A DNA stretch of 64,000 nucleotides, taken from contig CAXXSR010000001.1 of the NCBI GenBank assembly GCA_963662615.2, positions 1,901,664 through 1,965,663 of the forward strand, in the 5' to 3' direction. The notes under the pieces were generated by a model. That model made no database searches and had not been told where the DNA came from. It worked only from the letters and a program-made list of their open reading frames with translations. Within the stretch, counting starts at the first letter, position 1, and each line of letters begins with the position of its first letter. The DNA is from Dehalococcoidia bacterium. GTDB lineage: Bacteria > Chloroflexota > Dehalococcoidia > Bin125. A program made the translations under genes and the position numbers. Of this stretch, positions 1,043 through 11,105 are shown in pieces.

Positions 1043-2419
1043 TTACTCCAGCAAGCGCACCACCGGGTCACCGCCGGGAATGACGTAGTTCACGAACTCG
1101 ATCGCAATGTTCCCCGAGCCGGAAAGGTCGAACGTATCGACGATGATCTGGACGGGCCCCAAGTTCCCGCTGCCGGACATCGCGAGCTCTGCGCCGGGGA
1201 GGTAGATGACACCGCCCAAGCTGTCGCCGCTGCCCTCCAGCGTCATGCTCTTGTCGCAAGCGATGTCCTGCCAAAAGACAATGTCCGTATAGGGCCCGCT
1301 GGCCGGACCCGTGAAGACATTGTTCCCCGAGCCGCGGAGATCGATCCGTTGGCAGCGCGCCGGGCTCGCCGGATTACCTTGGGGGACGTACGGGTCGTTG
1401 GTGTTGTAGATCATCACCCCGTTCCCGTTGAGGTCGCCCGATCCGCTGTACACGAAACCGCCGCCCGCCATCACGTAGATCCCGGAGGCAAAGACCAGAT
1501 TGCCGCTGGCGGACATCTGGATGCCGCCGTAGTACACGCCGGGCTGGATGACGGTCGGGCCCGAACCGGTGATATGGAGAGTCGCTGGGGACTCGGCGGT
1601 GCCGCCGGAGTCGGGCGAGATGCTGGCCGGCGACGTGCCCGGCGGCGTCAGGCTCGCAAGCGGATCGGGCACGCGCGCGCCGTACGGCTCCGGCCAGGGC
1701 GTGTAGACGCCCGACCCGCTGAGCGTCTCCGTCCCCTCGTAGTAGTAGTGGATCATCGACGCCTGCACGTCGCCGCTGCCCACGCCGTTCAAGGCCCCGT
1801 TCGACGGGTTGTTGCAGGCGGAATTCACCATGATGCCGCCGCCTTGAATGTCCAGAAGGCCGCTGCCGGACTTGTCGTAGGAGCGGCACTCGTCCTCATT
1901 CAACGTCAAGAGCGCGTAGCCGCCGCTCCCCCCTGGAACGCTGCGCGCCACCGCGCGCGCGCTGCGATTCCCAAAGTCGTGAATCACGTACGACGGCGGC
2001 GCCGTCACCGTGACCTCAACGGCCATCGCGTCGCCCTGGTACGGCGTCACCACGGTCACGGGCGCGCCGTCCACACCGTCCCCGAAGCCGTTCCCCTCCG
2101 CATAATCCTGTGCCACCGCCGTCGCCAGCGAAGCGTTCGGGAGGTCCTGGGCCGCAGCGAGAGAGGCTGCATCGGCCGCGTTCTGCAACTCGCGCCGCGT
2201 GCTCAGCGCCATGCCGCCATCAATGACGATGCCCATGAACACAAGGAGGAGGGGAAACAGCAGCGCGACAAGGATGAGAGTCAGGCCCTGCTCATCGCCC
2301 CACAATCGCCCACGCCGGCAGACACGGAGATGCGCGCTCCCCCAGCGGCCTGCGGCCGCCAACGCCCGGCGCCAACGCCCCACTGGACGAGCTGACAATC
2401 GCGGTGGCCGAGCTGTCAT
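1043..2419 (-). CDS. TadE/TadG-like (Flp-pilus assembly type) membrane-anchored protein with GSG-repeat C-terminal region
   Basis: N-terminal GDEQGLTLILVALLFPLLLVFMGIVIDGG...AADAASLAAA resembles the Tad N-terminal anchor domain. The remaining ~330 aa contains at least 10 (S/G)GSG-type repeats suggestive of a beta-solenoid. The start is uncertain; TTG at 2305 is plausible. Confidence 0.7.
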   Translation of the reverse strand: MTARPPRLSARPVGRWRRALAAAGRWGSAHLRVCRRGRLWGDEQGLTLILVALLFPLLLVFMGIVIDGGMALSTRRELQNAADAASLAAAQDLPNASLATAVAQDYAEGNGFGDGVDGAPVTVVTPYQGDAMAVEVTVTAPPSYVIHDFGNRSARAVARSVPGGSGGYALLTLNEDECRSYDKSGSGLLDIQGGGIMVNSACNNPSNGALNGVGSGDVQASMIHYYYEGTETLSGSGVYTPWPEPYGARVPDPLASLTPPGTSPASISPDSGGTAESPATLHITGSGPTVIQPGVYYGGIQMSASGNLVFASGIYVMAGGGFVYSGSGDLNGNGVMIYNTNDPYVPQGNPASPARCQRIDLRGSGNNVFTGPASGPYTDIVFWQDIACDKSMTLEGSGDSLGGVIYLPGAELAMSGSGNLGPVQIIVDTFDLSGSGNIAIEFVNYVIPGGDPVVRLLE

Positions 2420-2533
2420 TCTCGCTCTCGATCGATACGAGGACGCCGGCGCACTGACCCTGGATGGGTCGCGCGCAGGCGCGGGGCCGCGAACCCGCCG
2501 CCCTCCATATCAATGGTCGGCGCCCGGCACGCC

Positions 2534-2581
2534 TCCTTGAGCCAACGCGTCCTTAAGCCAACGCCTCCTTGAACCGACGCC
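2534..2581. repeat. Imperfect 16-bp x3 tandem repeat upstream of the TadG-like gene
   Basis: Units are tccttgagccaacgcg / tccttaagccaacgcc / tccttgaaccgacgcc (13-14 of 16 identical between units). They lie in a ~450-bp stretch without a convincing ORF. Confidence 0.85.
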
Positions 2582-2869
2582 ACCACGCGTTGCTCCACGC
2601 GCAGCGGTCCTACGACTCTCGACACGAGCCAAACGCGAACACCGTCCGCCAAGGGGCCAGGGGCGGCCCGCCACCTCGCCCACGCGGGCAGCCTCCGGCG
2701 CGCCCGGCGAAGGGGTGAGGTCCTTACTTGGTCAGTCTGGAAATGCGCGATTCCCACCGCGATCGCCCGCGGAGTTTTGCCGGACGCGCCCGCACCCGCC
2801 GATGCGCCCGCACCCGCCGAAGCGCCAGCCGCGACCGGCGCCCGGGCGCTGTCCTGGCGGCGGACGGCC

Positions 2870-3088
2870 CTACCGCCGGTGGACGGCCTCCAAAATCGTG
2901 CTCAAGTGTCCAATGGCGCTGCGTTGCAGCAGGCGCACATCCGCCACACTGCGCCCCAGCCGCGTCGCAATCGTCTCGGAGGAGAGCCCCTCAAACATGC
3001 GCAGCTCCACCACCACCCGCTCCCAGCGCGGCAGCGCAGAGAGCCCGCTCCCAAGGTCGGTCTCAGTCCAGGTCGTCACGGTCCCCAT
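2870..3088 (-). pseudogene. Sigma-70 region-4-only fragment (ECF-type sigma remnant or stand-alone HTH)
   Basis: LSALPRWERVVVELRMFEGLSSETIATRLGRSVADVRLLQRSAIGHL is a typical sigma-70 region 4 HTH. No region 2 is encoded upstream in any frame; the upstream DNA is the repeat cluster. Confidence 0.5.
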
Positions 3089-3246
3089 CCCCTCTCCCTG
3101 GCACGTGCGCCTCCCGGCGCGGCTGCCCATCCCGACGGCGCATCGACGCCGCCTCGCTGTGCCCATCCATCTGTAAGACGCAGCCGCGCCCAGATCCTTA
3201 CAATCGCACCGCCACGCCGCCCCACCGCCCTGCACGCCGCCACCCC

Positions 3247-3772
3247 CCGCTCACCCTGAGCTTGTCGAGGGGTCACCCTGAGCCTGTCCTTCCCCCCGCC
3301 GAAGGAGCCCGTCAAGGGCCTCCCCTGAGATTGTCGAAGGGCGAACGGCGGCTCCTAACCGTTCGTCCTGAGCCTGTCGAAGGGGCGAACGGCACTCCCC
3401 CTTTCCAGCGGTTTCCGGTGGAGAGGGGGTTAGGCGTGACGTGCAGAACCCGCTCACCCTGAGCTTGTCGAAGGGTCACCCTGACCTGTCCTTCCCTTTG
3501 CGGAAGGAGCCCGTCAAAGAGCCTGCCCTGAGCTTCCCGAAGGGGCGAAAGCCGCCGACATTGCCGCGAGCATCAACCCTTAGCGCGAGCGGCCGCCAAC
3601 GCCGCGCTCCTTCGCACCCGCTGCGAGCGCGCATGGAAGAACCCGTTCGTCCTGAGCTTGTCGAAGGGGCGAACGGCACTCCCCCCCTCTCCACCAGCTT
3701 GCGGTGGACAGGGGCGACGCGGTGAGGTCATCCCCCCGTTCGTCCTGAGCCTGTCGACGGACGAACACTGGT
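3247..3772. repeat. Cluster of REP-like hairpin repeats (core cctgagcYtgtcgaagg)
   Basis: At least nine copies of the core are present. Some are flanked by inverted arms (3738-3766: gttcgtcc...ggacgaac). Composite units 3247-3347 and 3451-3550 are near-duplicates, and 3361-3403 resembles 3645-3690. Confidence 0.85.
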
Positions 3773-3906
3773 CACCACCGGAACTCCCAGAGTGAGTGGG
3801 GCGGAAAAAACGGCGGGCGGGGGCGGCCCGTGCTGCAGTCGTACTGCAGTGACACGGCTAACCGAGGGGGCTGTTGTTCCGATTGCTCTCTCGCGGATAA
3901 GCGCAA

Positions 3907-4794
3907 CTAGCGCCTGCGTAAATCGTCACGCCAGAACCGCATGCTGATATTCAAGCCAATCGAGTTGTACGCAGACTCCATCAGATTCACTGCCGGCTGG
4001 AACGGCCATCCAAATAACGTAACTTGCTCCCAGGCAGCCCGACTCAACCATGCGACCGAGCTGCCTACCAAGAACTCAATCGCTTCCCGCGTAACGATCT
4101 TCTCGATGAATCGTCCGTCTTTCCCGGTCCGTCTGCTCCCAAGACCCAGATATCCCCACGTCTCACCGTGAGACATCGCCGGGAGAAGCCTGTACGCACC
4201 TCCCGCGTTCAACGCAAGCCTCGCCAACTCAATGCGGGGTGGAGCCTTCTTCAGCGTAAGTCCGCGATGCTCCGCGATCTCCCGGATTTTACGGATACGA
4301 ACCCTTGCATCGTCCTCCGCCCGATCGTCCTTGCTCTCCTTGTAGAATTTCGTTTGCTCCGTGACGTCGTGGTAACGAAAGCTCAGGCCTCTCAGCACCC
4401 GATCATCTACATCGATTGAGCGGTCGAGTAGATAGACCACGCGCGATGCGTTCTCGAGGACCCCTCGAGCGCAACTCCAACTACTCGAGACGAGCGGAGG
4501 TTCCGCCAAACTTCGGTGCAAGCCGAAAATGTGGTCGCCTGCGACCTCTTGAGCTATCGCGGCCTGGCTATATGCAGTTTGTACGGCATCGGCATTGCCG
4601 TACTGCCGGAGCTCGGCCTCAGCCCGCGATCCTGGCTGAGGCTCGTAGCCGCATGTCTTGAGGTACGCTCCTAGCTCTTCTGGATAGCGTTTCAGCACAC
4701 CCAGCAGCGTGTCGAAGTGTTCCTTGTTTATCTGCGAGAAAGGCTGCTGGTCGGCCACGCCACCACCTCTAGAACCGAGAACAGTCGTTCGCAT
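3907..4794 (-). CDS. Hypothetical protein in a lower-GC islet
   Basis: A long ORF in a visibly less GC-rich stretch (about 3780-4930). I recognise no family. ATG at 4794 is preferred over the ORF-track start at 4860. Confidence 0.6.
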   Translation of the reverse strand: MRTTVLGSRGGGVADQQPFSQINKEHFDTLLGVLKRYPEELGAYLKTCGYEPQPGSRAEAELRQYGNADAVQTAYSQAAIAQEVAGDHIFGLHRSLAEPPLVSSSWSCARGVLENASRVVYLLDRSIDVDDRVLRGLSFRYHDVTEQTKFYKESKDDRAEDDARVRIRKIREIAEHRGLTLKKAPPRIELARLALNAGGAYRLLPAMSHGETWGYLGLGSRRTGKDGRFIEKIVTREAIEFLVGSSVAWLSRAAWEQVTLFGWPFQPAVNLMESAYNSIGLNISMRFWRDDLRRR

Positions 4795-4903
4795 GGCAAA
4801 CTGCCACAGCGGGTTTTCGCGCCCCCTTCCCCTCCCTTCCCCCCCTGTAACCCCCAACACACTCTTATGTCGCCTCTACTCTGGACCAAGACCGCGTACA
4901 GCG

Positions 4904-4940
4904 TTTATAACCCGCACTCCGCGTGCTATACTGAACCATG
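4904..4940 (+). promoter_or_regulatory. Putative sigma-70-type promoter giving a leaderless transcript
   Basis: The layout is TTTATA (4904-4909), a 17-bp spacer, then extended -10 TGcTATACT (4924-4932). The ATG at 4938 lies 5 nt after the -10 and no Shine-Dalgarno is present. Confidence 0.4.
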
Positions 4941-5546
4941 ACCACCTCCACCCCTCTCCCCACCGCCCCCACCTCGCCCAACGGACAGACCCCCACCCTC
5001 GCCGCTGGACCCCCGCTTGCGGGCTCGTCGGCACACCCCGCGGTCGCGCCGGGCGGCACACCACCGCCTGTGCGAGATAGCCCCAAGCGCGACAGGTTGA
5101 GTGTCCGCGTCCGCCTCCCCCAAGTCCGCGACCTCGCCGCCCGGGGCCACACCCGCGCCCAGATCGCCCGCACCCTCGGCGTCTCCCCCCGCACCGTCAC
5201 CGCCGACGTCGCCCGCCTCGCCACGCTCCAGGAGCAAGAGTTCGCCCGACGCGTCGGCCGCGACGGCCGCCTCCACGCCCTCGACGTCCACCGCCTCCTC
5301 CAGGCCTCCGCCTGGAAGGCCGTCGACGCCATCCTCGACAACCAGACCGACGCCTACCGCAACCTCGCTCCCCTCCTCCGCACCATCGCCCTCTCCCAGC
5401 ACGCCATGGACGGCCACCACACCGCCCAGCGCGACGACGACAAAAACGCCGCCAGGATGCGCGACTGGCGGCGGACCAAGCGGCAACTCGACCAGGACAC
5501 GCAGCGCCTCACCCGCGCCCTCACCGGCATCGACAAGCGCCTCTGA
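4938..5546 (+). CDS. HTH-domain protein with Pro/Thr-rich N-terminus (possible phage-derived small DNA-binding protein)
   Basis: VRDLAARGHTRAQIARTLGVSPRTVTADVARL is a clear helix-turn-helix, followed by a helical charged region. It is divergent from the islet gene. Confidence 0.6.
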   Translation: MTTSTPLPTAPTSPNGQTPTLAAGPPLAGSSAHPAVAPGGTPPPVRDSPKRDRLSVRVRLPQVRDLAARGHTRAQIARTLGVSPRTVTADVARLATLQEQEFARRVGRDGRLHALDVHRLLQASAWKAVDAILDNQTDAYRNLAPLLRTIALSQHAMDGHHTAQRDDDKNAARMRDWRRTKRQLDQDTQRLTRALTGIDKRL

Positions 5547-5609
5547 CGCCAATGGCGCCCACCGCTCCGACCACGCTCAGTGTCTCGGGATGAACGGAGC
5601 TCGCGCCGC

Positions 5610-6671
5610 CTAGACCGGCACGTCCAGCGCCATGCCCAGAAGCACCGCCGTCACGATCCGGCGCTCCGAGTACAGCCGCTCGGCTCGGTCGAACGAGCCC
5701 TCACACGTGACCAGCGTCAGCATCGACGTCGTCGTCGACTGCAGGAATCGTCCTCCATCGGGATCGTCGTGCGGCACCGACAGCGTCTGCGTCACCAGGT
5801 ACACGTGCGTCACGCCCGCCTCCCGATCGACAACCAGGATCTGATCGCCCAGCGCCACCTCCGGCAGCGCCCACGCCACCCCCAACCCCACGTTGCCATC
5901 CACATCCGTGTAGTCCCGGTGCCCGTCCAGCAGCACGTTGCCCGGCTCGCCCGGCATCGGACCGTCCTGCCACCAGCCAATCACATCCGGATTGTCCGGC
6001 GCGCCGAATGCCCCGTTCGGCAGCACCCCCAACCCAACCACGTCCGCCCGCAGCTTTGCCGCTGGGATGATGACCTCCCACGCCGTCCGATTGTCCACGG
6101 ACGGAAAGATCCCTGAGCCGCGCAGGTTCGACCCAGCCTCGCCGCTCCCGCCGTGGATCAGCGCATCGACGTCGAACTCCGGCAGCGCCACGATCGGAGG
6201 CCGCCAAGGCGTCGCCGCCGACGCCTCCACTCCCGTGGCCGCGTCGGAGCTGCGCTCCTGCGCGACGACGGGCAACGTCGCCGCGGTCGCCTCCCCCTTG
6301 ATCGTCGATGGAGTCGCACCGTCACCAGCACCGTCGCCCGCACCGTCACCGTCGTAAAGAACCATCAGCAGCAGGACCGCCACGATTGCAGCGGCGAGCC
6401 CCCCCACCACGGATGCCGCCACCATCCGGCCTGCCCATTTGGCGGTCGCTGCCGGCAGCCCGCGAGCGCTCTTGTGCGGGCCTCGCGCCGTGCGCAACGT
6501 CTCGACCGCGTCGCTCGGCACGCGATAGATCGGTCCCCACGGCCCCACGTCGCTCTCCGAGCGCAGACGCCCCTCTTCGATCCAACGGGTGACGTCGTCA
6601 CTCGTGACGCCCAGACGGGCAGCCGCCTCTCGAACCGTCAGCTGCTCCGGCGAAGACGTTTCCTCGTGCAT
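5610..6671 (-). CDS. Excisionase/MerR-type HTH - transmembrane - sortase (class F-like) fusion protein
   Basis: The N-terminus LTVREAAARLGVTSDDVTRWIEEGRL is an excisionase-family HTH. A TM helix (VVGGLAAAIVAVLLLMVLY) and a GDGA-repeat linker follow. The C-terminal sortase fold carries catalytic His (LLDGHRD), Cys (LTLVTCEG) and Arg (SERRIVTA). Confidence 0.85.
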   Translation of the reverse strand: MHEETSSPEQLTVREAAARLGVTSDDVTRWIEEGRLRSESDVGPWGPIYRVPSDAVETLRTARGPHKSARGLPAATAKWAGRMVAASVVGGLAAAIVAVLLLMVLYDGDGAGDGAGDGATPSTIKGEATAATLPVVAQERSSDAATGVEASAATPWRPPIVALPEFDVDALIHGGSGEAGSNLRGSGIFPSVDNRTAWEVIIPAAKLRADVVGLGVLPNGAFGAPDNPDVIGWWQDGPMPGEPGNVLLDGHRDYTDVDGNVGLGVAWALPEVALGDQILVVDREAGVTHVYLVTQTLSVPHDDPDGGRFLQSTTTSMLTLVTCEGSFDRAERLYSERRIVTAVLLGMALDVPV

Positions 6672-6780
6672 CGCTTAGGCCTGACTTGCCGCTTCCCTGC
6701 GTCCCAGTCGCTATCCTCGGGCGCGCCCACGCGGTGGCCCGCGGGAGACCTGCTCCCCCTCAACAGTAGACTCGCACGAC

Positions 6781-6834
6781 CCACCGCTCGTTACGGCCAC
6801 CGCTCGTTACGGCCACCGCTCGTTACGGCCACGG
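6781..6834. repeat. Perfect 16-bp tandem repeat x3.4 (ccaccgctcgttacgg) upstream of the HTH-sortase gene
   Basis: Three exact units occupy 6781-6796, 6797-6812 and 6813-6828, plus a partial ccacgg. The array lies 110 nt upstream of the sortase start codon on the minus strand. Confidence 0.95.
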
Positions 6835-6859
6835 CCCGGAAGCGGACACGCCGGCTCCC

Positions 6860-7816
6860 TCAGCCCGCGTCCCCATTCGCTCGAAGCCACTCCAGAAGGC
6901 GTCGAACGCTTGCCGTCGCGACGGCCACGTAGGTGTCCGCGGCCCCATAGTAAAGACGCAACGTGTCGCCATCCGGCCCCACGGTCGCGCCGCATGCGAA
7001 GACCACGTTCCCCACGTCGCCCATTCGCTCATACGACGCCTCCGGAGCAAAGATCCATTCTCGCCCACGTCGCAGGCAGCGGTCGGGCTGCTCCAAATCC
7101 AAGAGCGCGAGCCCCAACCGGTACTGCGGCCCCCCAGCCACCATCCGCACTCCGTGATAGATCAGAAGCCAGCCCTCGGGCGTTTCCAGCGGCGGCGGGC
7201 CAATGCCGATCTTCGTGGAATCCCACCACGGTCCCCTGCGCCGCGACATCACCTGGCGATGGCCACCCCAATCCTCCAGGTCAACGGAGGACGCGATCCA
7301 AACGTTACCCTCGTCACCGGGCATAGCCCGATGAAGGAGTGCCCAGCGGTCGCCGAAGCGTCTCGGGAGCAAGGCGCCGTTCTTGTTGGGCGGCGCCAGC
7401 AAGCCGCCCCGACGCTCGAAATGGCGAAAGTCCTCCGTCAGCGCCAGCGCCAGCGTCGGCCCCGCGGCGGAATAGGCCGTATACAGCACGGCGAACCGGC
7501 CCAGTTCAGGAACGTAGACGACCCGCGGATCTTCCAGGCCGAACTCCTCCTCCCTGCGCTCCGGATCCGGCGCCAGCGTGGGCGCGGGATCGATCTCCCA
7601 GCCGTCAATGCCGTTCGCGGAGCGGGCCACGGTGAGATGCGAGACCCCGCGTCGGTCCTCTACACGGCAAAGGAGGCACGTCGTGCCGTCCGGCAGCGTC
7701 GCCGCCGCCGGATTGAAGACCGCCGCGACGGGGTACGGCCAATCCGCCGGGCTCAGGATGGGATTGTCAGGATGCCGCTCGAACAGCTCGCACCGCTCCA
7801 GCAGTTCCGCCATCAC
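6860..7816 (-). CDS. Glycoside hydrolase family 130 protein (mannoside phosphorylase/hydrolase family)
   Basis: NPILSP...AVFNPAA...LLCRVEDRRG..., EDPRVVY, YTAYS and WLLIYHGV match GH130 five-bladed propeller enzymes. Confidence 0.88.
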   Translation of the reverse strand: MMAELLERCELFERHPDNPILSPADWPYPVAAVFNPAAATLPDGTTCLLCRVEDRRGVSHLTVARSANGIDGWEIDPAPTLAPDPERREEEFGLEDPRVVYVPELGRFAVLYTAYSAAGPTLALALTEDFRHFERRGGLLAPPNKNGALLPRRFGDRWALLHRAMPGDEGNVWIASSVDLEDWGGHRQVMSRRRGPWWDSTKIGIGPPPLETPEGWLLIYHGVRMVAGGPQYRLGLALLDLEQPDRCLRRGREWIFAPEASYERMGDVGNVVFACGATVGPDGDTLRLYYGAADTYVAVATASVRRLLEWLRANGDAG

Positions 7817-9086: not shown

Positions 9087-11105
9087 ATGGCGACCCAGCC
9101 CTTGGACCAGCTCTGCATCAATACCATTCGCACCTTGGCCATGGACGCCGTTCAGAAGGCGAATTCAGGCCATCCCGGCACGCCCATGGGCGCGGCGGCC
9201 ATCGCCTACACGATCTGGACTCGCTTTCTGCGTCACAATCCCGCCAACCCGCGCTGGCCCGACCGCGATCGATTCGTGCTCTCGCCGGGTCATGCCTCCA
9301 TGCTGCTCTACAGCCTCCTCGCCCTGACCGGATACGACCTGCCAATGGAGGAGCTGCAGCGCTTCCGCCAATGGGGGAGCAAGACGCCCGGACACCCGGA
9401 ATACGGTCTCACCCCGGGCGTCGAGCTTACGACCGGACCGCTCGGCGCTGGCTTCGCCATGGGCATCGGCATGGCCGTTGTCGAACGCTTCCTGGCCGAG
9501 CACTTCAACCGGCCGGGGCACGAGATTGTGGACCACTACGTGTAAGGCATCGTCAGCGACGGCGACCTCATGGAGGGCGTCGCGGCCGAGGCGGCCTCCC
9601 TCGCCGGCACTCTGCGCCTCGGCAAGCTCATCTATCTGTACGACGACAACGAGATCTCCATCGAAGGCAGCACCGACATCGCCTTCACCGAGCAGGTGGG
9701 CCGGCGCTTCGAAGCGTACGACTGGCACGTCCAGCGCGTTGACGGCAACGACGTGGACGCCGTCGCCACGGCCATCAACACAGCCCGCGCCCACGCCGAG
9801 CGGCCCTCCCTGATCATGGCGCGGACGGTGATCGGATTCGGCAGTCCCCATGCGGCTGGGACGGCCCAGGTGCACGGCGCTCCGCTGGGTGAGGAGGAGA
9901 TTCGCCTAACCAAGCGGGCCCTGGGCTGGCCGGAGCAGCCACCGTTCCACGTGCCGGACGAAGCGCTCGGAGAGTTCCGCAAGGCGCTCAACCGTGGTCG
10001 CGCCTGGGAAGAGGAGTGGAACGGGCGCTTCGCGTCATACGAAGCGGCCTTCCCGGATGACGCCCGGCTGTGGCGCGTCGTCTCGGCCGGCGACCTCCCT
10101 GAGAACTGGGACGCAGCGGTACCAACATTCACCTCCGCCGACGGCCCCATGGCGACCCGCCAGGCGTCCGGCAAGGTGCTCAACGGCCTCATTGAGGGGC
10201 TGCCCACATTGCTGGGCGGATCGGCGGACTTGGCTCCGTCCACGAACACCTATCTCAAGGGCTACGGCGATCTCGGCTTCGACGAATGGTGCGGACACAA
10301 CATGCATTTCGGCGTCCGCGAGCATGCCATGGGCAACATTGCGAACGGCATGGCCCTGCATGGCGGTGTCATCCCCTACACTGCCACATTTCTGGTCTTT
10401 TCGGACTACATGCGGCCGGCGCTGCGGCTCGCCGCGCTACAGCGCGCCCACGTCATCTTCATCTTCACCCACGACAGCATCGGCATGGGCGAGGACGGGC
10501 CGACCCACCAGCCCGTCGAGCACCTGGCGTCCCTGCGAGCGATGCCCGACTTCACGCTCTTCCGCCCAGCCGACGCCAATGAGACCGCCGAGTGCTGGCG
10601 CCTCGCGGTCGCCCGTCCGGGTCCGGCAGCCATCGTCCTGAGCCGCCAGAGTTTGCCCGTCTTTGACGACATTAAGCGGATTCGCGACGGCGTCCGCCGC
10701 GGCGCCTACGTCTTCGCCGATGCGGATGCCGCTTCGCCCGATCTCGTCCTGCTCGCGAGCGGATCCGAAGTCTCGCTGGTTCTCGCCGCCCGCACTCTCC
10801 TCGGCGAGCGCGGGATTCAGGCACGGGTGGTCAGCATGCCGAGTTGGGATCTGTTTGAGGAGCAGCCCCAGGCGTACAAGAACGCGGTGATCCCGTCCGG
10901 CGTACGTGCCCGTCTGGCCGTCGAGGCGGCCTCCCCCCTGGGCTGGCACCGGTACGTGGGCGACGCGGGCGATATCGTGGCCCTCGCTCACTTCGGCGCA
11001 TCGGCGCCCGCGGATCAACTGTTCCAGGCGTTCGGCTTCACACCGGAGCAGGTGGCGGATCGCGCCGCGGCGCTGGTGGGACAGCCGGCCCGGCAGGGCG
11101 CCTAG
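9087..11105 (+). pseudogene. tkt: Transketolase interrupted by an in-frame TAA (9543-9545)
   Basis: ORFs 9087-9545 and 9570-11105 are in the same frame. Together they read ...[30 protein letters not shown]..., the conserved ThDP-binding GDG(x)LMEG region. The stop replaces the conserved Tyr. A GGAAGGAGG SD lies upstream of ATG 9087. Confidence 0.9.

Follow-up and report, generated by a model that had tools for sequence, protein, structure and literature searches.

Sortases are familiar as simple enzymes anchored in the membrane, and their cytoplasmic tails are short. What might a DNA-binding fold do on the cytoplasmic end of such an enzyme, and what might it act upon? The question is raised by a gene in a 64,000-nt stretch of a Dehalococcoidia genome (contig CAXXSR010000001.1, positions 1,901,664 to 1,965,663; here called the window) which encodes, in a single open reading frame (ORF), an excisionase/MerR-type winged helix-turn-helix (wHTH), a transmembrane (TM) helix, a linker and a sortase. 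A perfect 16-bp tandem repeat lies upstream of this fusion gene, and an initial annotation of the sequence suggested that the repeats could be the operator of the HTH. The evidence set out below points elsewhere. The repeat seems to be a recent expansion of one box of a promoter-like motif resembling those used by sigma factors of the extracytoplasmic function (ECF) type, and the fusion gene is the first of a conserved pair. The second gene of the pair, absent from the initial annotation, encodes a small protein with sigma-70 region 4 only, and the two may form a regulatory unit linked to the cell envelope.

Architecture of the fusion protein

The gene and its parts, in the coordinates of the window, are:

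5610..6671, minus strand: fusion gene, 353 amino acids (aa), with winged HTH, TM helix, linker and sortase (ORF call, ATG start)
6483..6644, minus strand: excisionase/MerR-type winged HTH, predicted to be cytoplasmic, residues 10-63 (TIGR01764, AlphaFold2 (AF2), Foldseek)
6357..6413, minus strand: single TM helix, residues 87-105, predicted N-in/C-out (hydropathy, AF2)
6192..6350, minus strand: disordered extracytoplasmic linker including (GDGA)3 (predicted local distance difference test, pLDDT; Tandem Repeats Finder (TRF) 6316-6350, period 12)
5628..6191, minus strand: extracytoplasmic sortase catalytic domain (PF04203, AF2, Foldseek)
5919-5921, 5703-5705 and 5658-5660, minus strand: catalytic codons for His251, Cys323 and Arg338, respectively

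The four-part architecture proposed in the initial annotation (HTH, TM helix, (GDGA)n linker and complete sortase) is borne out by domain profiles, hydropathy, structure prediction and invariant catalytic residues. Pfam Sortase (PF04203) matches residues 202-344 with 52.8 bits (gathering threshold, GA, 26.6). The NCBIfam 'excise' profile TIGR01764 scores 31.6 bits, over its cut-off of 28.8, and Pfam HTH_17 (PF12728) scores 25.3 bits, slightly below its GA of 27. H251, C323 and R337/R338 are invariant across a 34-sequence family alignment, with the cysteine lying within TLxTC. In an AF2 model of the full-length protein, built on 34 homologues, the wHTH is predicted with a pLDDT of 82-96 (about 90; 80 in a model of the HTH alone) and the order beta-alpha-alpha-beta-beta-alpha, with helices at residues 13-20, 24-32/33 and 53-63 and a hairpin of strands at 39-43 and 46-52. 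A long helix (74-107) spans the TM segment, residues 109-149 are disordered (pLDDT below 50), and the sortase domain forms a beta-barrel (pLDDT 80-96) that Foldseek matches to solved SrtA and SrtE structures (E 2.6e-10; template modelling score normalised by target, TMt, up to 0.82). By profile, catalytic residues and predicted fold the domain is a member of the sortase superfamily, and its sequence suggests that it is catalytically intact.

Residues 87-105 are the sole hydrophobic segment of the protein (Kyte-Doolittle (KD) average over 19 residues 2.74, with no other such average above 1.6). The segment is flanked by a basic N-terminal side (net charge +2) and an acidic C-terminal side (net charge -4), and is followed directly by YDGDGAGDGAGDGA at residues 106-119. 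This charge bias and the long AF2 helix agree with the earlier placement of the HTH inside and the sortase outside, which is likewise a prediction: the protein is best modelled as a bitopic membrane protein with a cytoplasmic wHTH and an outward-facing sortase.

The description of the sortase as class-F-like needs some qualification. Class F (NF033748) is the best-scoring NCBIfam class, with 79.1 bits compared with 28 bits for class E, but this is far short of the class F cut-off of 166. The homologues score 69-85 bits, so that the whole Chloroflexota clade is also sub-threshold. By the NCBIfam threshold, then, the sortase would not be counted a member of class F, although F remains its closest class. 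Two scans of all ORFs for a C-terminal motif, hydrophobic stretch and basic tail found no credible sorting-signal substrate in the 64-kb window, as the initial annotation had also remarked of LPXTG-type genes. Among the sortase loci compared, a protein with a sorting signal adjoins only distant ones (L030, L031, L033 and L035; 33-39% identical), and at L015 and L017, which are named Actinomycetota, the upstream gene also ends in a sorting signal.

RacA anchors DNA to the cell pole, and its DNA-binding domain (5i44) is the top Foldseek match to the HTH-only model. Pukovnik Xis (4j2n) and BldC-DNA complexes (6ama, 6amk) also match (TMt 0.8-0.86, root-mean-square deviation 1.1-1.3), as do the N-terminal domains of MerR-family regulators. 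A sequence search of the PDB gave no match with the single sequence and only E 0.3-1 with a profile. On the model, the HTH is placed in the excisionase/MerR winged-HTH fold family.

An origin of the HTH in a prophage or integrative element was considered and rejected. No tRNA, integrase or attachment site was found near the fusion gene in the window, where the neighbours are housekeeping genes. PHROG gave only weak excisionase/HTH matches, PADLOC a weak match of a 26-residue HTH segment to mad1 (E 2.5e-4), no relatives were found in the viral contigs scanned, and synteny is conserved in the sister species (L036). Lacking an integrase, a tRNA and a phage context, the HTH domain is judged not to be a working excisionase.

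Orthologues, rarity and selection

A search over 5.8 billion proteins returned 33 homologues. Thirty of these, from Chloroflexota/Dehalococcoidia metagenome-assembled genomes, belong to the same sortase clade, and in them a short cytoplasmic tail leads through a TM helix into an acidic linker; the tail is 10-40 residues long in most relatives in the clade. In the fusion protein a DNA-binding fold has replaced this short tail. The full-length HTH-TM-sortase arrangement was seen in 3 of the 33 (P0001, P0002 and P0003; 43-55% identity overall). A further fusion, P0036, was added by a hidden Markov model (HMM) search and is 40% identical over the N-terminal region, its HTH scoring 37.0 bits with PF12728 and 40.5 bits with TIGR01764. 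The N-terminal identity of the four other full-length fusions thus ranges from 40 to 55%.

The HMM search was exhaustive over 1.84 billion cluster representatives and the census of fusions was taken from the best 150 matches listed, a view that independent fusions to distant sortases fall outside. P0002, P0036 and a frameshifted P0055 are the only full-length or N-terminal matches in that list, and the fusion is very rare, with about two to three clusters at 50% identity among the matches listed. All 13 loci from 185,579 species genomes and all 14 from JGI metagenome contigs were without the HTH, and a search with an N-terminal profile recovered only the window's truncated allele (see below) and one unrelated excisionase. 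No paper describing an HTH-sortase fusion was found in the searchable literature.

The sister species L036 carries an intact 345-aa copy that is 89.5% identical and has the same synteny as the window. Between the two, the ratio of nonsynonymous to synonymous substitution rates (dN/dS) is 0.20 in the HTH and 0.27 in the sortase domain, with 0.65 in the TM region and about 2 in the linker, which also carries an 8-aa indel. Since orthologues keep the fusion and dN/dS is low, the fused form is ancestral to a small clade, with both domains constrained. The placing of all parts in one ORF holds, given the four other full-length proteins and the L036 copy, and by these comparisons the fusion is a genuine gene under purifying selection and not a sequencing artefact.

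Close relatives of the window carry a disabled allele, the first lesion of which is at:

6483..6485, minus strand: codon 63, CGA (Arg) in the window and a TGA stop in L005 and L006 (sequence comparison)

A 62-aa protein corresponding exactly to residues 1-62 is called on these two assemblies, L005 (a 967-kb contig) and L006, which are 99.3% identical to the window across 16.7 kb. Their second lesion is a 32-bp frameshift deletion in the linker (window 6215-6246), between short CGACGC repeats, and the leftover 193-aa sortase ORF is without a TM helix. The initial annotation had named a stop or a frameshift in the interval 6300-6500 as a sign that the two domains are separate genes. Such a stop is literally present in L005 and L006. 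What it reflects, however, is the pseudogenisation of a gene whose ancestral form was fused, and not two separate genes. Some backgrounds can evidently dispense with the gene. The P0055 fusion gene (L021) is also frameshifted, and that of L037 is fragmented, which may be an assembly error since the contig has 3x coverage.

These lesions, the extreme rarity of the architecture and the free variation in repeat number are what a decaying or accidental gene would display, one produced by domain accretion or as an assembly artefact and preceded by neutral junk repeats. It is very improbable, however, that such a gene would recur with the same architecture in four other full-length proteins of only 40-55% N-terminal identity, keep a dN/dS of 0.2-0.27 in both domains and an intact catalytic triad, and be accompanied by the conserved promoter-like motif and partner gene described below.

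Several other features of the family were observed. Five sortase relatives of 600-950 aa (P0093, P0096, P0101, P0121 and P0131) have an N-terminal DUF4012, another unusual fusion. Several Dehalococcoidia genomes (L008, L009, L010 and L013) contain two tandem paralogous sortases of the clade, the upstream one having a long acidic C-terminal tail, as do P0032 and P0033. In L003, L004 and L021 (P0002, P0003 and P0055) the membrane segment (residues about 78-105) is weakly hydrophobic (KD 1.3-1.5) and is preceded by RRLARRAF, which is twin-arginine-like, though it lies some 75 residues into the protein, behind the HTH.

The tandem repeat and a promoter-like motif

Two elements occupy the region upstream of the fusion gene:

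6781..6832, no strand assigned: 16-bp perfect tandem repeat, about 3.25 copies, a variable-number tandem repeat (VNTR) (TRF period 16, 3.2 copies, 100% matches)
6767..6794, minus strand: promoter-like motif GTAAC-N18-GTCTA, with its -35-like box in the proximal repeat unit and GTCTA ending 95 nt before the ATG

The array consists of three exact CCACCGCTCGTTACGG units and a 4-nt partial unit, the unit reading GGCCGTAACGAGCGGT on the coding (minus) strand. It starts 27 nt past the stop of an upstream GH130 gene and ends 109 nt before the ATG. The earlier figures of 3.4 copies at 6781-6834 are thus slightly too large, although the period of 16, the three exact copies and the distance of about 110 nt from the start codon all stand. 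The exact 16-mer is unique in the window; other matches carry two or three mismatches and are at about chance level.

The number of copies is strikingly unstable. There is one copy in the sister species (L036/L037), where the box reads GTCAC, two in L005/L006, three in the window, and four plus an irregular partial unit, about 4.6 in all, in L001, which encodes an identical 353-aa protein. Across 16.7 kb, the window and L001 differ by no indel other than the repeat. Three single-nucleotide polymorphisms also distinguish them, and in the repeat (L001 9856-9905 against window 6781-6832) L001 has an irregular 25 bp inserted (GGCCGTAACGT + CCGTAACGAGCGGT), which suggests slippage out of register. 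L002, L003, L004 and L021, like L036, have a single copy of the box and L020 has none; in the P0002 clade (L003, L004 and L021) a second box, GT(T/A)AAC, lies 11 bp upstream of GTAAC. With copy numbers of 1, 2, 3 and about 4.6 in near-identical assemblies and a single copy in distant orthologues, the tandem array is not a conserved operator. As judged from these alleles, it is a recent, hypermutable slippage expansion of a promoter-like box.

What is conserved at the orthologous loci is a bipartite motif, seen when the upstream regions are compared by anchoring on it: CGTAAC-N18-GTCTA or, equivalently, CGTAAC-N17-RGTCTA, the repeat unit holding the -35-like half. Each motif-bearing orthologue has exactly one GGC(C)GTAAC box followed by GTCTA after exactly 18 unconserved bases. 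The exact N18 with unrelated spacers is found in the window and in four independent lineages beside it (L002, L003, L004 and L021), while the distance from motif to ATG varies among orthologues from 49 to 113 nt. The proximal repeat copy keeps N18 to GTCTA throughout and only the upstream copies vary. GTAAC-N18-GTCTA matches once in the window, compared with 0.03 matches expected, and a scan of 13 sortase loci without the HTH gave no match.

Boxes that are conserved and keep a fixed spacing, while the spacer is free and the leader varies in length, are hallmarks of a -35/-10 promoter. CGTAAC has been established by experiment as a -35 element for ECF sigma factors: the sigD promoter of Corynebacterium glutamicum has a GTAAC(A/G) -35 with a GAT -10 (PMC6338062), that of Mycobacterium tuberculosis is GTAAC-N17-18-CGAT, and the Streptomyces sigShbA promoter is CGTAAC-N16-CGATGA (PMC12019637). 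CGTAAC-N18-GTCTA therefore looks like an ECF-type promoter and not a direct-repeat operator. The earlier expectation that this region is regulatory is upheld, in that the repeat unit holds a conserved cis-element, but the element is not the one that had been proposed.

The proposal had been that the HTH binds the tandem 16-bp direct repeats head-to-tail, making the array an autoregulatory operator. BldC and a phage Xis are among the nearest structural neighbours of the HTH, and BldC does bind direct repeats cooperatively, as head-to-tail multimers (PMC5859096), yet a 16-bp period would set successive sites on opposite faces of the helix. The repeat unit carries a conserved GGCCGTAAC box, but that box is paired with GTCTA, the N18 distance being fixed and the spacer free in sequence, a promoter-like arrangement, and the sigma4 gene described below has a similar bipartite motif without a tandem array. 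Multiple boxes do recur, 11 bp upstream in the P0002 clade and as a GTAAC 12 bp upstream of a GTAAG in L004. However, tandem direct repeats of the kind that BldC and Xis target are not conserved at the orthologous loci, where L002 and L036 have one box (GTCAC in L036) and L020 none, and near-identical genomes differ in copy number, between 1 and about 4.6. An operator formed by the array itself is thus unlikely. The lesson for genome scans may be that, where an HTH gene has a perfect tandem repeat upstream, this can be the hypervariable expansion of a promoter box instead of an operator.

Other explanations for the upstream region were also tried and set aside. A structured RNA element, whether intergenic or in the 5' untranslated region, was discarded, with a fold z-score of -0.70 and no Rfam match at E up to 1 over 2300-7200. 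A MerR-type long-spacer promoter was ruled out by spacers that are unconserved and without dyad symmetry. A search of 6600-6950 found neither a sigma-70 promoter nor an intrinsic terminator for the GH130 gene upstream.

A sigma-70 region-4-only partner gene

A second gene with a motif of this kind lies downstream of the fusion gene:

2870..3088, minus strand: partner gene, 72-aa sigma-70 region-4-only protein (Sigma70_r4_2 30 bits, Sigma70_r4 26.9 bits)
3174..3201, minus strand: GTAAG-N17-GTCTTA, a promoter-like motif ahead of the sigma4-only gene (motif scan)

In L021, a 122-aa Sigma70_r4/r4_2-only protein is likewise encoded downstream of the sortase and is 43% identical to the window protein over the sigma4 domain. 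Further homologues are found in L004, L036-L038, L039 (which continues the P0002 locus), L040, L041 and L042. At all seven sigma4 loci with a visible upstream gene (L004, L021, L036-L037, L039, L040 and L041) the sigma4-only gene is downstream of this sortase on the same strand, and it was found at none of the 27 non-HTH sortase loci tested. A profile search places the family at about seven clusters of 72-149 aa without PF04542, below which the scores fall to ordinary full-length ECF sigmas; no description of such a family was found in the searchable literature.

The motif GTAAG-N17-G[TA]C[TA]TA precedes the sigma4 genes of the window, L036, L021, L004, L039, L040, L041 and L042, and in L004 a GTAAC lies 12 bp upstream of the GTAAG box. 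A generalised form that embraces both genes, GTAA[CG]-N17-[GA][GTA][TC][CT]TA, has exactly two sites in 64 kb, those of these two genes, against a simulated mean of 0.035 for a pattern that was set post hoc. The comparison of loci shows a conserved two-gene module, with the fusion gene first and each gene having its own putative ECF-type promoter, CGTAAC-N17-RGTCTA for the fusion gene and GTAAG-N17-GnCTTA for the sigma4 gene.

The strict co-occurrence of the HTH and the sigma4-only gene, both of which the non-HTH sortase loci lack, may be read in another way. Instead of a DNA-binding regulator, the wHTH could be a module for protein interaction or anchoring, either an anti-sigma-like tether of the sigma4 partner or an anchor in the manner of RacA or RodZ, giving the sortase or the chromosome its position. 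The HTH of RodZ binds MreB, and the top structural match of the fusion HTH is to RacA, a chromosome anchor; on the other hand, residues usual in excisionase HTHs that bind DNA are conserved and TIGR01764 is passed. Gene order and topology mimic sigma/anti-sigma pairs, but Pfam and NCBIfam matched no ASD, zf-HC2 or RskA anti-sigma domain in the fusion protein, which has the wHTH in that place, and the two genes have separate promoters and lie 2.5 kb apart in the window. Split ECF sigma factors exist, SigO-RsoA being an example (PMC7826278), although a region-4-only protein alone is not a sigma factor. On balance this interpretation is unlikely.

A putative envelope-linked regulatory unit

The interpretation that we favour, with slightly more confidence than doubt, is that the pair makes up a small regulatory unit linked to the envelope, with transcription from GTAAC/GTAAG promoters of ECF type. 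Both the wHTH, tethered to the membrane, and the sigma4-like protein, as a reader of -35 boxes, would act on these promoters or on each other. The wHTH may bind DNA at the membrane, as ToxR and CadC do, and/or hold the sigma4-like protein, and the expression, activity or substrate load of the sortase could thereby be coupled to transcription. Extra repeat copies would only add upstream GTAAC boxes, which may tune or titrate expression.

Several observations weigh against this interpretation. The promoter reading draws on the shape of the motif and on analogy with published promoters, its -10-like GTCTA departs from the CGAT of ECF40 promoters, and the generalised pattern that unites the two genes was chosen after the fact. 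With region 4 alone a protein cannot be a complete sigma factor, and no partner bearing sigma2 was found. In L020 (P0036), one of the fusion orthologues, both the motif and an adjacent sigma4 gene are missing, and a sigma-70-like TTGACG-N17-GAGATT is present instead; the HTH thus does not strictly need the motif or the sigma4 gene in cis. Loci of the close Dehalococcoidia homologues likewise yielded no sortase substrate, most orthologue contigs are only 1-4 kb long and so offer limited context, and the inactivation in L005/L006 together with the frameshift in L021 shows weak or conditional selection.

A bolder version of the favoured interpretation would make the pair a transmembrane signalling module of a kind not previously described. 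The state of the sortase, in terms of acylation or of substrate, would be relayed across the membrane to the tethered HTH, which, with or against the sigma4-like reader, would control a small regulon of GTAAC/GTAAG boxes, with the VNTR as a heritable dial of expression. So specific a scheme is improbable as it stands.

The wider significance of the module is inferred from metagenomic sequence of uncultured organisms. A sortase with a folded DNA-binding domain would be the first candidate for a direct coupling between surface-protein processing and gene regulation. It may also provide a handle on sortase biology in Dehalococcoidia-like Chloroflexota, whose substrates and envelope targets are not known. 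The tiny sigma4-only family beside the sortase would be a concrete and testable case of a non-canonical sigma-like factor.

Neighbouring genes and repeats

About seven repetitive extragenic palindromic (REP)-like copies (core CCGTTCGTCCTGAGCTTGTCGAAGGGGCGAACGG) lie at 3247-3778, between a 317-aa hypothetical gene and the sigma4-only gene. They give rise to spurious ORFs, whose translations include 'RQAQDER' and 'FDKLRTNG', and are also present in the sister species (L036, 7890-8040). The hypothetical gene (3907-4860, minus strand; 283-317 aa) has no Pfam, NCBIfam, PHROG or PADLOC match and is missing at the syntenic L036 locus, where an HTH_23 gene directly precedes the sigma4 gene; it is a lineage-specific insertion beside REP-like elements. 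In the window the divergent HTH_23 gene (4938-5546, plus strand; 202 aa) has a Pro-rich N-terminus and is called as 149, 195 or 202 aa depending on the assembly. It has a 13-bp indel (about 4957-4969) between the window and L005, and with this one, three of the five indels in 16.7 kb lie in 4.9-6.9 kb.

A second tandem repeat of 16-bp period (2529-2581; 3.3 copies, 83% matches) sits between the sigma4-only gene and a Tad/TadE-like gene (1043-2305, minus strand). Its minus-strand units contain a Shine-Dalgarno-like AAGGAGG and, unlike the repeat at 6781, it has the same copy number in the window and L005. Further away, the transketolase of the window, L001, L005 and L006 is split into a 152-aa N-terminal ORF (9087-9545, plus strand) and a 511-aa ORF (9570-11105, plus strand), compared with a single 672-aa gene in L036. 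The transketolase is either made in two pieces or disrupted by a frameshift or stop throughout the species.

Comparison with known systems

The repeat resembles promoter VNTRs and contingency loci in being a perfect short repeat at a putative promoter with copy-number polymorphism in near-identical genomes. In the classic cases, however, the repeat alters the -35/-10 spacing, whereas here the proximal spacing is kept and upstream copies vary.

The module shares with ECF sigma/anti-sigma pairs, and with the split ECF sigma factor SigO-RsoA, a small sigma-like gene near that of a protein which crosses the membrane once and has a domain outside the cytoplasm. Upstream of both genes, the sigma-like gene included, are putative -35 boxes of the AAC type (CGTAAC, as for sigD and sigShbA; PMC6338062, PMC12019637). 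It differs in having region 4 only, with no sigma2 partner or anti-sigma domain found, in its separate promoters, and in a -10-like box of GTCTA/CTTA in place of CGAT.

As a sortase, the fusion protein is like the class F enzymes, the housekeeping-type sortases of Actinomycetota, in its predicted bitopic N-in/C-out arrangement, its TLxTC cysteine, histidine and arginine, and its beta-barrel. It is set apart by its sub-cut-off score, by the lack of an adjacent sorting-signal substrate in the window and by a wHTH as cytoplasmic tail. That wHTH has the same fold and size as BldC, Xis and the RacA DNA-binding domain and passes TIGR01764. BldC and Xis are free in the cytoplasm and RacA is anchored at the pole through a partner, whereas the fusion HTH is, by prediction, covalently tethered to the membrane.

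In this last respect the fusion protein comes closest to ToxR, CadC, TcpP and VtrA, which likewise have a DNA-binding domain at the N-terminus, in the cytoplasm, joined through one TM helix to a domain outside, an arrangement that is predicted here. Those regulators combine an OmpR-type winged helix with a sensor outside the membrane, whereas the fusion protein would combine a MerR/excisionase-type HTH with a complete enzyme.

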